Below, piece after piece: positions 45,322 through 52,135 of a stretch of DNA of 64,000 nt; position 1 is the stretch's first letter; each line of letters begins with the position of its first letter. The stretch comes from a bacterium (GTDB lineage: Bacteria; SAR324; NAC60-12): assembly GCA_965205865.1 (NCBI GenBank), contig CBDBHR010000027.1:1-64000 (forward strand). The letters are read 5' to 3'. The notes under the pieces are model-generated. The model searched no databases. It was not told the origin of the DNA and saw nothing but the letters and a program-made list of their open reading frames with translations. The position numbers were made by a program, and so were the translations under genes.

Positions 45322-46209
45322 GAACCTGTTTGAAATAAGTTGAGCTTCCTATTGGAAGTGTTCCATGTCACATTCATTTTGAGAAAAATGAAACCTTAAT
45401 AACAAGGAGTGAACATGGAACGTTCAGGTTATAACAGTGATGTCAGTGATAAACAATGGGAAAGACTTCAAGAGTACCTTCCCGAACTTTCAACTCGTGG
45501 AGCCCACCTTCGTAAATGGGAACTACGAGTTATCATAAACGCCATTTTGTATGTAGTGACCACGGGTTGTCAATGGAGAATGCTTCCCAAAGATTTTCCT
45601 CCTTGGCAAAGTGTTTATTACCACTACAATAAATGGTGCAAGAACGACACTTGGTTCCTGATTCACCAGTTTCTCCATCGGCAAACCCGAATAGAAACGG
45701 GCAGAGCTCCCGAACCCAGTGCTGCAATGATTGATAGTCAATCCGTCAAAACCACGGAACTGGCTGATAGTCGAGGTTTTGATGGAAATAAACGAATCAA
45801 AGGGCATAAAAGGCATGTAGCTGTCGATATCTCGGGAATTCCTCTCATGGTTAAAGTCACTGATGCCAATGCCTCCGATTCCAAAAGTGCTTACGATCTT
45901 TTGGAATCGATGTTTAGCTGGTTCTTTTCGATTCAGATGATTTGGGCCGACGGAGGTTATCGAGGGGAATTAGCCCAATGGTTATGGAATCGATTTCAAT
46001 GTGAACTTGAGATCACTCTAAACCTCCAAGGAACGGGCTTTCAGGTCCTACCGAAAAGGTGGATCGTCGAAAGAACCTTTTCCTGGTTTGGATGGTATCG
46101 AAGACTCAACATCGATTATGAAAGAAAAACAAAAAACTCTGAAAACATGATCTATGTCGCTATGATTTGCTTGATGTTAAAGAGAATTAAATGACTTTCA
46201 AACAGGTTC
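45322..46209 (+). mobile_element. IS5-family IS (888 bp), TA duplication
   Basis: TIR GAACCTGTTTGAAA / TTTCAAACAGGTTC flanked by TA. Confidence 0.9.
45409..46194 (+). CDS. IS5-family transposase
   Basis: NAILYV..GCQWRMLP, IDSQSVK, KGHKRH, WADGGY, RWIVERTF. Confidence 0.95.
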   Translation: MNMERSGYNSDVSDKQWERLQEYLPELSTRGAHLRKWELRVIINAILYVVTTGCQWRMLPKDFPPWQSVYYHYNKWCKNDTWFLIHQFLHRQTRIETGRAPEPSAAMIDSQSVKTTELADSRGFDGNKRIKGHKRHVAVDISGIPLMVKVTDANASDSKSAYDLLESMFSWFFSIQMIWADGGYRGELAQWLWNRFQCELEITLNLQGTGFQVLPKRWIVERTFSWFGWYRRLNIDYERKTKNSENMIYVAMICLMLKRIK

Positions 46210-47784: not shown

Positions 47785-48572
47785 AAGGGGGTCAGGCCTT
47801 TGATTAAATGAAAAGGGAGCAAAAAAACTATACTCGTTCCTAATCAAATAATCAAAGTCACCGTAAAGAACTGACTTATAGTGGTTTCCAGCCACCTTTC
47901 GTCATTCCTCCGGTACAGATCCGGATGTGCGCTGCTAACGCATCCGGCTCCTGCTTCGAGTCAGACGCTCAAACGTTGATTCGGATTCGCCGTTTGGCGC
48001 ACCCTGCTTAAACCGCTCTCTGATTTTACCGGCCTCTGAGTTCCGAACACAGCAGGGCAAGCAGAATTCCTCTCAGCCAAGTCCCTTTGCTCCACAGGCT
48101 CCGTTGATTTCCTTTGCATTGTTACTCTCTACAAATGATCTCATTGTTCGCCGCTTCATAGCTACTACGAACTTGTCCGACTTCCTGAAGACGTAGATAT
48201 CGGGGTTATTTATTAATTTTCCCGATCCGACTACCAATGGAATGGTGACAGTCATCCTCAGGATCTCCCAGGTTCCGATCAAGAAACTTCCACACATGCA
48301 CAGGGTCTTTGACTCCGCCAGGCTCAGCCGAGACTCACGCTAACGCCTTCGGTTGATATTGCCTTCCCCACCAGACCACAAGGTCAGCGCATGAGACTAT
48401 GATTTCGGAGCTCAATACCGAGCCTATGTTCTCCCCTGTCAACGCTTAGCGCCTATCCTTGCGGATAACCACTCATGACTCGGGGACTCGGCGGGTCGTT
48501 ACTGCCTTACCGAGTAAGAGACTTTCACTCTCTATTTCTTGCCAGCTTTCCTGGCGCACGGCCTGACCCCTT
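47785..48572 (+). mobile_element. 88-bp-type MITE/REP-pair copy 1, right TIR split by a group II intron
   Basis: Removing 47857-48559 restores a copy of 50733-50820. Confidence 0.85.
47857..48559 (-). ncRNA. Group II intron, 703 nt, RT ORF deleted
   Basis: 5' GTGCGCCAGG, domain V GAGCCGGATGCG-TTAGCA-GCGCACATCCGGATC, 3' end ..CGGTGAC; precise exon junctions. Confidence 0.9.
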
Positions 48573-48641
48573 TTTGACTCTCTCCATAGTTAAAATATAT
48601 TCTTTTAGGAATGAAATTTAAATAAGTTAGAAGTATGGATA

Positions 48642-49991: not shown

Positions 49992-50732
49992 ATGAAAAAC
50001 AAACGTAGCGCAAGATCGGCAAGAACGACAGCAAAAAATATCCATATCAGCCAGGGAGGCAGAGACCTTACCGCGCAAGCAGGCTTGATTCCGGTTGTCA
50101 AATTTTTTCACAAAGAAGGGATTGTTTCAAAGACAGAGCAGACCGTAGATCATCAGCGTGGCGCCACGGGTCTCTATGACGCGGTGGACATGATCATTTT
50201 GTCGTTGGTCGGCATTGTTGGCGGCGCCCGTTCGATTCGTTCGATTGTGACAGTTTGGAACGACCGTGTTTTGAGTCGTGCGGCCGGTTGGCTGAGGATT
50301 CCGGATGAAAGCACATTCGGCCGGATACTGCGTACTTTCACACAGAAAAACATCAATGAGATGGAGAGCTTGAACCATCGGATTCGAGTCGGTATCTGGC
50401 GCAAGGCGCTTCGAAGTGGGACAAGCATTGTTGGGGTGTTACCCTGTCTTGTGATTGACGTGGACTCCACTATGAAAACGGCCTACGGCAAGCAGCAAGG
50501 AGTGTCTGTCGGATATAATCCCCACAAACGCGGTGCAGCTTCGTATCATCCTCTGCTGGCATTTTGTGCAGAGACAAAGGAGATTCTTCAGGGTTGGCTT
50601 CGTGATGGGAGTGCCTATACCAGCAATGGAGTCGTTGATCCCCATTGCCATGAGGACTAGATTCATGCGGTAACTTCTCGCTCATCTTCCAAATCGGACT
50701 CGCACTCTGTTTCGTGGAGACAGTGGTTTTTT
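49992..50732 (+). pseudogene. IS1380-family transposase 5' fragment
   Basis: LTAQAGL, IDVDST..YGKQQG..YNPHKRG..SYHPL; about 22-bp insertion plus stop, then FRGDSGFF ending at the MITE. Confidence 0.85.
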
Positions 50733-50820
50733 AAAGGGGGTCAGGCCTTTGATTAAATGAAAAGGGGGCAAAAAAACTGGACTCGTTCCTAATCAAATAA
50801 TCAAAGGCCTGACCCCCTTT
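50733..50820. mobile_element. 88-bp MITE/REP-pair copy 2 (intact)
   Basis: Perfect 23-bp TIR AAAGGGGGTCAGGCCTTTGATTA. Confidence 0.88.
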
Positions 50821-51270: not shown

Positions 51271-51518
51271 CCCTTCCGGCTGTCGGACCAATCTACCTCG
51301 ACGCCAGTGCGTTTATCTATAGCGTGGAGCGCGTCGAACCCTACCGGGAGTTGCTCGAACCCATGTGGCGGCAGGCTCAGGCCGGTCAGTTCGGCATCGT
51401 GAGCAGCGACCTGGTGGTTTTGGAGACGCTCGTCAAGCCTCTGCGCGAACGCGACACGGTAGTCGAAAGGCTCTTTCTTGATATATTTGACGCTAAAAAG
51501 GATATAGGAGAGAAATAG
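51258..51518 (+). pseudogene. PIN-domain (VapC-like) toxin, 3' truncated
   Basis: IYLDASAFIYSVE, SDLVVLETLVKP; C-terminal acidic motifs absent. Confidence 0.7.
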
Positions 51519-52135
51519 TGAACGATTCTATACCCGACGATATTCTGGTCATCATGAAAAAAAGAAAAATCAATTTCCTTTACTATCTGGTCCCAATTGA
51601 TAATTTGATTTCAATCAGCCGGAATGGTTTGCTTTCTCGCAACCGTATAAGTGGATGTGATATAGCGCTAGACATAGCAGATATAAATGTCATTGAAACG
51701 CGAAGGAGGAAATCCTTTTTCAACCATTTGCTACTTGATTTTGTTCCCTTGTATTTCACCCCCAAGAACCCAATGCTATACCGTCGCAGGGAGATTCAGG
51801 ATAAAATCGCCATTCTTTGTTTAAATAAAAATCTGTTGTTGCAGGAAGGCACGGTGTTTACCGATGGCAATGCTGCTTCTATGGAAACCAGATGTTTTAG
51901 AAATCCAATGGATCTCGAGAGCTTGGATTGGAAGTGTATCCGTGCCCAACGATGGCCGGATTTTGAAGACGGCAGACGGAAACGCTGTGCCGAGGTTCTG
52001 GTTCCTGACCAGATTCCTTTTTTGCATGTCCAAAAAATAATTACCCAAACAGAAGATGCCCGTTTCCGGGTTTATGAAACCATGGGAGAAAAGAAAAAAG
52101 TGGAATTACAACCAAGGTGGTATTTCGATGAGTAA
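51518..52135 (+). CDS. darT: DarT-like DNA ADP-ribosyltransferase (DUF4433)
   Basis: IDNLISI..GLLS, DFVPLYFTPKNPMLY, FTDGNAAS, KRCAEVLV. Confidence 0.88.
   Translation: MNDSIPDDILVIMKKRKINFLYYLVPIDNLISISRNGLLSRNRISGCDIALDIADINVIETRRRKSFFNHLLLDFVPLYFTPKNPMLYRRREIQDKIAILCLNKNLLLQEGTVFTDGNAASMETRCFRNPMDLESLDWKCIRAQRWPDFEDGRRKRCAEVLVPDQIPFLHVQKIITQTEDARFRVYETMGEKKKVELQPRWYFDE

Follow-up and report, generated by a model that had tools for sequence, protein, structure and literature searches.

An RT-deleted group II intron in the terminal inverted repeat of a MITE from a SAR324 bacterium, and related copies at a terminus shared with RAYT-like elements

A 64,000-nucleotide (nt) stretch of DNA from a bacterium of the SAR324 lineage NAC60-12 (GenBank assembly GCA_965205865.1, contig CBDBHR010000027.1; the whole stretch, numbered from its first letter, is called the window) carries on its minus strand a group II intron that has lost its reverse transcriptase (RT) gene and splits the terminal inverted repeat (TIR) of a miniature inverted-repeat transposable element (MITE). 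It is very probably a non-autonomous bacterial group II intron that entered its site by retrohoming. The same intron, with or without an RT gene, recurs across the source assembly (4.74 Mb in 30 contigs, the window being contig C27) mostly after one short sequence, which forms the outer terminus of the MITE and of larger elements encoding Y1-type transposases. The assembly is a draft in which repeats may be collapsed or break contigs, so that all copy numbers given here are minimum estimates.

The intron and its insertion site

The intron is recognized by Rfam family RF02005 (group-II-D1D4-6), which matches positions 48303-48525(-) with 162.8 bits (gathering score 49, E 4.5e-47) and is alone among Rfam families in scoring above threshold anywhere in the window. 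Its ends, GTGCG at 48559 and GTGAC at 47857, fit the 5' GUGYG / 3' AY rule, and the same ends are found at 41 5' junctions and 36 3' junctions genome-wide; over its length it is 95-97% identical to 15 other complete copies that lack the RT open reading frame (ORF). The original prediction, made from the letters of this stretch, of a 703-nt minus-strand intron running from GTGCG to AC is thus confirmed, with 48559 and 47857 as its boundaries.

The last 99 nt of the intron fold into a domain V hairpin and a long domain VI (-38.4 kcal/mol, z = -3.6), and in this predicted fold an unpaired domain VI A at 47864 lies 8 nt from the intron 3' end. Domain V had been called intact, which holds in part: the hairpin, an AGC triad and an AC bulge are all present in the fold, but RF00029 (domains V and VI) matches 47857-47952(-) with 26.7 bits, which does not reach the gathering score of 40 (permissive 1-kb search, E 0.006), and an A replaces the U that usually faces the triad G. 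Because the same G.A opposition occurs in an RT-bearing sister copy and in homologues from other genomes, it is taken as a clade feature and may be normal for the clade. On the modeled structure, domain V of the window copy is best described as present rather than proven intact.

The intron can pair with its 5' exon over 6 nt. For the analysis of exon-binding sites (EBS) the first ~330 nt of the intron were aligned with 15 homologues from other genomes, whose RTs are 47-65% identical. GGUCUG, proposed earlier as a candidate EBS1 from its match to the exon, lies in the terminal loop of a hairpin that is conserved in the later part of domain I, and the hexamer at the same loop columns pairs fully with exon positions -1 to -6 of its own intron in 14/14 introns whose 5' exon is known, which use 10 different hexamers; no other column window of the alignment exceeds 0.83 in the same scan. 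In three homologues (L035, L038 and L061) the 5' boundary was shifted by 1-2 nt according to this pairing, leaving 11/11 as the independent count. By position and pairing GGUCUG is EBS1, and the proposal is upheld, its placement in a domain I loop included. No EBS2 was found in the first ~330 nt, domains II-IV being unsearched: exon positions -7 to -15 do not pair above background (best 0.57-0.77 versus 1.0 for EBS1), and the EBS2-IBS2 interaction (IBS, intron-binding site) of group IIB-type introns is not seen in this segment.

The junction reads ggggtcaggcc, intron, tttgatta, i.e. GGGGTCAGGCC/TTTGATTA; the 5' flank ends in ...AAAAAGGGGTCAGGCC and the 3' flank starts with TTTGATTATTTGATTAGG.... 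Excision in silico at exactly this point, as had been foreseen, restores an 88-nt element that is 83/88 identical to the intact MITE at 50733-50820 and has the same orientation. The intact element has a perfect 23-bp TIR, AAAGGGGGTCAGGCCTTTGATTA, and the intron is placed within this repeat, after its base 15. The element has the properties of a MITE: it is 88 bp long, non-coding, bounded by perfect TIRs, present in 29 copies, and shares its ends with ~1-kb elements that encode Y1_Tnp proteins. Among the 29 copies found by blastn, 16 are uninterrupted and 13 are interrupted at one of two sites, stopping exactly at 14/15 (7 copies) or 74/75 (6 copies), each followed by an intron or a remnant of one. 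No MITE with both sites filled was seen in the lists of MITE copies. The window itself holds three empty sites, at 47798/47799 (+), 50747/50748 (+) and 50806/50805 (-), in agreement with the earlier count of two sites per MITE and three left empty. The features of the locus are collected in Table 1.

Table 1. Positions in the window of the intron, its parts and the MITE sequences around it
Feature	Position	Strand	Basis
ORF-less group II intron	47857..48559	-	703 nt, GTGCG...GTGAC; RF02005, 162.8 bits
Domain I to start of domain IV core	48303..48525	-	RF02005 model positions 1-225 of 225
EBS1, GGUCUG	48372..48377	-	Terminal loop, domain I hairpin (RNAalifold consensus, 15 homologues)
IBS1, CAGGCC, last 6 nt of the 5' exon	48560..48565	-	5 Watson-Crick pairs and one G-U with EBS1
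Fused RT ORF remnant in domain IV, 52 codons	47961..48119	-	Translation; deletion junction 47986/47985
Domain V hairpin (AGC triad, AC bulge)	47918..47950	-	Predicted fold; RF00029, 26.7 bits (gathering score 40)
Domain VI with unpaired A at 47864, then 3' splice site	47857..47917	-	Predicted fold, z = -3.6
Outer part of the MITE TIR (AAAAAGGGGTCAGGCC), 5' exon	48560..48575	-	Sequence; 40-junction consensus, AAnGGGGTCAGGCY
Rest of the interrupted 88-bp MITE, 3' exon starting TTTGATTA	47785..47856	-	blastn, intact-MITE positions 2-74, 95.9%
Empty site, opposite TIR of the interrupted MITE, GGTCAGGCC/TTTGATTA	47790..47798	+	Cut at 47798/47799
Intact 88-bp MITE	50733..50820		Two empty sites: 50747/50748 (+), 50806/50805 (-)

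Loss of the RT gene and copies across the genome

Domain IV of the window copy contains a short frame, MQRKSTEPVEQRDLAERNSACPAVFGTQRPVKSESGLSRVRQTANPNQRLSV followed by a stop codon (MQRKST...SRVRQTA/NPNQRLSV), that had been noticed for its likeness to the start and end of an RT ORF. The likeness is real: the 470-aa RT ORF of the full-length copies (e.g., C26:286295-288251, 1957 nt; loci are given as contig and position) has the same MQRKST start and ends in YPNQRLSV before its stop codon. By this match to both ends, the stub is an in-frame fusion of the two extremes of the ORF, nearly the whole RT having been deleted. As the 52-codon fusion is all that the window copy retains of an RT/maturase, the copy is, judged by its gene content, non-autonomous.

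Four full-length 1957-nt copies keep an open 470-aa frame with a YADD motif, and in one 2039-nt copy the frame is broken. The ORF matches Pfam RVT_1 (9.1e-37), which is its sole Pfam match at E <= 0.001; no HNH endonuclease domain was found at this threshold. In the one copy scanned against NCBIfam group_II_RT_mat (TIGR04416) it scores 344 bits (cut-off 300). Among solved structures, group II intron RTs are its best matches (7uim, 7.5e-45; 6me0, 6.6e-38; 6ar1, 1.9e-37). Its nearest named relatives come from deltaproteobacterial and other metagenome-assembled genomes (MAGs), and a cyanobacterial origin is rejected on this ground. Of the suggestion that the intron is non-autonomous and needs an RT in trans, the loss of the ORF and the existence of four RT-bearing copies are borne out, and mobilization in trans would be the step that joins them.

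A blastn search with the full-length intron returns 50 hit clusters, one of which (a 72-nt match at 75%) is disregarded. The ORF is deleted at 24 loci. Twenty of these have in common the junction ...CCAAACGGC/AACGT..., in one case with an additional point change beyond it; three, namely the window, C26:239010 and C28:326218, have the junction of the window copy, and one has a variant of the latter that is 1 nt shorter; the window intron and the full-length copy are compared by blastn coordinates. The window copy represents the rarer and longer form, its junction being 11 nt longer, and removal of GAATCCGAATC from the long form gives the short form. The two deletions are therefore nested, a pattern most simply explained by one loss of the ORF followed by spread of the ORF-less intron. 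At several loci the intron is truncated, through either biology or the assembly.

At least seven loci carry a second intron-like element nested near position 394-400 of the outer intron. At three of them (C28:326612-327516, i.e. L070 513-1417; C29:728189-729062; C30:654280-655123) a 905-nt ORF-less group II intron (GTGCGCAC...CCCGAC) follows ...GTTCGTA within domain IV of the outer intron, making a twintron; it matches RF00029 with 44.2 bits, above threshold, and RF02001 with 27.5 bits, below threshold. A few nt 3' of this nested site, a 909-nt insert (GTGAGCAGCC...) is present at four full loci (C30:1206301-1207209, i.e. L030 1900-2808; C28:263296-264204; C29:627308-628216; C30:788634-789543), with copies 99.9-100% identical inside outer introns that have diverged. 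It matches RF02003 with 33 bits, below threshold, no domain V match was found in it, and it is a probable third intron family by its sequence; a 197-nt fragment of it occurs in a different context at C29:45404-45599. At C26:239009-240179 two introns stand head to tail (GTGAC/GTGCG), the upstream copy starting with ATGCG, which suggests that an occupied site was re-invaded using the 5' exon alone.

An intron of this origin could by now be inert, and the same could hold for the whole ORF-less lineage; this is to be doubted, though it deserves serious consideration. In its favor, the window copy and the remaining complete ORF-less copies differ by 3-5%, few loci (3) share its deletion form, its domain V falls under the Rfam threshold, and many loci are truncated. 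Moreover, ORF-less copies in a genome of the same genus are only 90% identical and at least one of their loci looks orthologous, so that the ORF-less lineage appears to be old. However, all ribozyme landmarks are present in the window copy (RF02005 match and predicted fold), and in a comparison of the 16 complete ORF-less copies, variation in domains V and VI is roughly half of that in the stub (0.009 versus 0.020 differences per site per sequence, the numbers being small). Four RT genes are still open, and the inner introns that are 100% identical point to very recent movement of composites. Continued activity of the window copy would be consistent with the latter observations.

The target terminus and how it may be read

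The 40 non-tandem 5' junctions give the consensus AAnGGGGTCAGGCY. Measured against GGGGTCAGGCY, 23 are exact, 8 have one mismatch, 6 two, 1 three and 2 four; the flanks of the other copies, whose unrelatedness would have spoken against a dedicated homing target, thus prove to be largely alike, 31/40 lying within one mismatch of the motif. The first 3' base is T in 30/36 junctions. Recognizable element termini form the 3' exon in 27 of these 36 (15 begin with TTTGATTA..., 4 with TGCATAYTKGTAT, and four other families account for 2 each), a tandem intron in 1, and other sequence in 8. Across the genome, GGTCAGGCY occurs 211 times, versus ~61 expected from base composition, an excess beyond chance; it is followed by the intron in 28 cases and, summed from the motif list, by family-specific inner sequence in ~120.

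These termini belong to several kinds of element. The same 11-nt outer terminus, joined to a family-specific inside, bounds elements of 345 bp and of 0.8-1.2 kb, and at least six families share the outer terminus AAAGGGGTCAGGCY and differ inside (e.g., C29:722030-723090, L068; C30:422400-423700, L069). The large elements encode 276-312-aa proteins with a Y1_Tnp domain (PF01797, 53.8 and 49.7 bits) and a DnaA-C-like helix-turn-helix (HTH) domain (Bac_DnaA_C, PF08299, 32.7 bits in one protein and below cut-off in the other), and inverted repeats flank them; the 345-bp elements are internal deletions in which both protein ends are kept. Against one such protein the NCBIfam model REP_Tyr_transpos, for the transposase associated with repetitive extragenic palindromes (REP-associated tyrosine transposase, RAYT), scores 71.1 bits, below its cut-off of 80, and no PDB match was found at E <= 0.01; as a label based on these domain matches, the large elements are RAYT-like. 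The genome has 15 Y1_Tnp matches above cut-off, i.e. the gene is not single-copy, and at 5/15 the intron lies directly upstream on the same strand. As side observations, inner ends of the target elements often have a direct 6-mer repeat at a spacing of 8 nt, and C30:62000-68000 is densely packed with short perfect hairpin elements (GGGGTCAGGCTTGCATACTTGTAT...ATACAAGTATGCAAGCCTGACCCC), of which some sit inside each other and inside the 88-bp MITE.

The 88-bp MITE has the same ends as the TTTGATTA family of Y1_Tnp elements and is only the most used of the target families. Judged from the aligned junctions, the target is the sequence common to all families and the insertion point is the border between shared and family-specific sequence. 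The idea that a multicopy non-coding repeat serves as the homing target is supported in this modified form, the target being a terminus common to several families and not one MITE.

Could the host elements have done the copying? One or a few insertions into a MITE or RAYT-like element might have been enough, most copies arising afterwards as the Y1 transposase copied the composite with the intron as cargo. Some features of the loci are what such hitch-hiking would produce: intron-bearing 88-bp MITEs mostly have one internal sequence variant and empty ones mostly another (judged by eye), four twintron composites contain inner introns that are 99.9-100% identical, the 3' flanks at C29:725560 and C29:732458 are identical, and filled loci are clustered, e.g., four within 20 kb on C28. 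Yet the same MITE variant bears, on the same side, the main deletion form, the window-type deletion and its 1-nt variant; both MITE ends are used (7 and 6 times); and the intron occurs in six or more element families and, on the 3' side, in 8 contexts that are not element sequence. For these reasons hitch-hiking cannot be the main route and, as a general account, is highly unlikely. In addition, the tandem intron pair requires a fresh insertion, and a split 23-bp TIR would be expected to impair recognition by the transposase. The MITE-borne introns comprise a full-length copy, both deletion forms and twintron forms, and by this variety are independent insertions; some copies may nevertheless be explained by hitch-hiking, having spread as MITE+intron units.

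For the independent insertions, retrohoming offers a mechanism drawn from established group II intron biology. The RT/maturase from a full-length sister copy would bind the ORF-less intron RNA, splice it and carry it, and the resulting intron ribonucleoprotein would reverse-splice into DNA just after CAGGCC. The site would be read by the 6-nt EBS1-IBS1 pairing and the T at +1, probably with further contacts to the upstream GGGG(U/A). Because the RT lacks an endonuclease domain, the complementary DNA (cDNA) would most likely be primed by nascent DNA at the replication fork, as for RmInt1. Through AAnGGGGTCAGGCY/T, the outer terminus of RAYT-like elements and MITEs, the intron would have some 150 non-essential, non-coding landing sites at its disposal. 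Priming of this kind would predict a strand bias, which the orientation of the loci does not establish: GC skew is weak and patchy, 32/49 loci are on the G-rich strand (p = 0.044, for loci that are clustered and non-independent), and the shared orientation of 29/39 neighboring loci on a contig, by a count that includes fragments of the same locus, is only suggestive.

Retrohoming might also be guided by structure, in the manner of group IIC introns: the terminus would be read mainly as a folded single-stranded DNA (ssDNA; a hairpin of the REP or REPIN type) or as an end processed by the transposase, with a short IBS1 only. The undetected EBS2 signal in domain I fits this proposal, as does the nature of the targets, which are palindromic elements of ssDNA-acting Y1 transposases. 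The RT without an endonuclease domain, which has group IIC RTs as its best solved relatives (7uim, 7.5e-45, versus TeI4h, 6.6e-38), and introns of other genomes that lie just upstream of Y1-like genes (L063, 27 bits; L045, 19.8 bits, below cut-off) agree with it as well. By contrast, the site is inside a palindrome arm and not downstream of a hairpin, the sequence 5' of the 11-mer is unique per locus, and 8/36 insertions have no recognizable 3' element, most of them still with the 5' motif. Domain V of group IIC introns has a CGC triad, whereas AGC is found here, and the margin in the PDB ranking is small. Guidance by structure of this kind is, all told, distinctly improbable.

Several observations weigh against retrohoming of an RT-deleted intron into this terminus as the account of the window copy. 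Nine of the 40 5' junctions have 2-4 mismatches to the motif, and 8/36 3' exons are not recognizable element ends. No EBS2 that would read the conserved GGGG(U/A) of exon positions -7 to -11 was found in the aligned ~330 nt, and no association was found between the first base of EBS1 (A/G) and the -1 base (C/T) among the copies (7/3 versus 10/9, Fisher p = 0.45). No more than 3 loci (plus the 1-nt variant) have the deletion form of the window copy, domain V has its sub-threshold score and G.A opposition, and intron-bearing MITEs are enriched, by eye, in one internal variant. Finally, contigs from four public runs (one of unknown kind, three metatranscriptomic) break at repeats and contain no joints; they speak neither for nor against splicing or empty alleles. 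Intron sequence is present in contigs of RNA libraries, where DNA carry-over is possible. The runs that contain intron sequence include two labeled as sponge metagenomes; locus-unique flanks are thinly covered, so that no claim on habitat is made.

The neighborhood in the window is rich in mobile elements. A transposase ORF at 49992-50657 (+) matches only the first ~200 of the 435 positions of the DDE_Tnp_1_4 profile and ends ~75 nt before the intact MITE; the MITE at 50733-50820, or an event at it, may have truncated this insertion sequence (IS). An IS4/IS5-family transposase (DUF4096 and DDE_Tnp_1) is encoded at 45409-46194 (+), and the ORF at 51518-52132 (+) is a full-length DarT match (PF14487, 131 bits). 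DarT is the ssDNA ADP-ribosyltransferase toxin of DarTG toxin-antitoxin/defense pairs.

Relatives, precedents and significance

Among the 31 genomes searched the intron is present in three, namely its own, one of the same genus and one of another genus of the family, and was not found in the other 28. In the same-genus genome the ORF-less, ~90% identical intron follows AAAGGGGGTCTGGCT and precedes TGAAAGTTTGGAAAA..., i.e. the same element ends, and one locus looks orthologous to C26:222128. In the other-genus genome the 5' exons resemble AAGGACAGCCA. Outside the genus, the closest relative with an RT (82% RT identity) is that of 'Deltaproteobacteria bacterium TL4' (L031), in which a 1.37-kb insertion (615-1987) interrupts the intron at position ~135, within domain I.

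Gammaproteobacterial homologues with 52-59% RT identity are found after A-rich GGGACAGGCA or GGGGACACC motifs. For three homologues a Y1-like gene is the next one downstream (L063, 27 bits; L045, 19.8 bits, under the cut-off; L039, in tblastn alone), L041 is upstream of an IS1595 transposase, and others are beside unrelated genes; a wider association between the intron and Y1 genes is suggestive, not established. Since gammaproteobacterial relatives follow similar motifs, some of them directly upstream of Y1-like genes, it is conceivable, if unlikely, that the whole clade has specialized as a hyperparasite of Y1-transposase elements of the RAYT/REPIN-like kind in distant bacteria. With a 6-nt EBS1 and no EBS2 found, such an intron may read the remainder of the terminus via the RT, or via folded ssDNA exposed at replication forks.

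The closest precedent is the TeI3/TeI4 family of Thermosynechococcus elongatus, with 28 copies in one genome (Mohr, Ghanem & Lambowitz 2010, PMC2882425). That family has ORF-less copies with a single ORF deletion and N- and C-terminal remnants, mobilized by the RT of sister copies, and it also includes twintrons, while a conserved site in a different mobile element serves for insertion (PMC2882425). Proliferation within one genome (~50 loci here), ORF-less copies arising by ORF deletion, and twintrons are thus common to both. Mobility was demonstrated experimentally in Thermosynechococcus (PMC2882425), whereas here it is deduced from sequence. The Thermosynechococcus introns have split into six EBS families with various targets (PMC2882425); by contrast, EBS1 in the SAR324 family is nearly invariant and serves one motif, EBS2 is not detected in the first ~330 nt, and the target is a terminus common to Y1-transposase (RAYT-like) elements and MITEs. 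The two also belong to different phyla, the nearest named relative here being a deltaproteobacterial MAG.

RmInt1 of Sinorhizobium meliloti, with an endonuclease-less RT, homes in the multicopy ISRm2011-2 (PMC1802570, PMC8914252), inserting into transient ssDNA at the lagging-strand template (PMC8914252). An RT without an endonuclease domain and natural homing in a multicopy mobile element are shared with the present intron. However, RmInt1 copies, as described in these sources, retain the ORF and their target is inside an IS of another family, whereas here the ORF-less form is dominant and the site lies in a TIR. Group IIC introns resemble the present one in short exon recognition (EBS1 only), in an endonuclease-less RT of the kind best matched by 7uim, and in association with palindromic DNA. 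They differ in Rfam family (here D1D4-6), in the domain V triad (here AGC) and in their position just 3' of a terminator- or attC-like hairpin; here insertion takes place inside the palindrome arm of a TIR, and the upstream sequence is unique to each locus.

On the side of the target, REPIN/RAYT systems and IS200/IS605 elements share with the present elements Y1_Tnp proteins, inverted palindromic repeats and short non-autonomous hairpin derivatives. The present set differs from REPIN/RAYT systems in its 15 Y1_Tnp matches, in place of a single domesticated gene, and in the extra DnaA-C-like HTH domain. Homing into other mobile elements is general among bacterial group II introns (PMC4181065). 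In Pseudomonas putida KT2440, the sole precedent found for REP sequences, a group II intron is listed among REP-associated mobile elements, with 2/9 copies so placed (Tobes & Pareja 2006, PMC1525189); here, 27/36 3' junctions are in element termini and 13/29 MITEs are occupied. No report of group II intron homing into RAYT, REPIN or MITE termini was found in a literature coverage that is incomplete and leaves such absence unproven. What is distinctive in the SAR324 genome is the target, a terminus common to RAYT-like elements and MITEs, and the occupation of 13/29 MITE copies; otherwise, the phenomenon closely parallels the Thermosynechococcus family.

The window copy and its sisters provide a clean natural example, outside cyanobacteria, of an intron that multiplies after loss of its RT gene, the enzyme presumably being served in trans. 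By aiming at a conserved sequence of another multicopy selfish element, such an intron would make its insertions costless to the host. The genome offers a data set for target saturation, trans-mobilization and intron-transposon conflict, since it combines MITEs in the filled (13) and the uninterrupted (16) state, some 120 termini that are empty, an ORF deletion in two nested forms and three intron families that are nested; the short recognition (EBS1 only, with a conserved GGGG(U/A)) could inform on target choice by endonuclease-less RTs. For annotation, the MITE is to be regarded as part of a larger RAYT-like set with one 11-nt terminus. If the intron clade were indeed a hyperparasite of Y1-transposase elements, three selfish layers would be nested here, intron in intron in MITE or transposon, and the intron could cripple or regulate the transposon by splitting its TIR.

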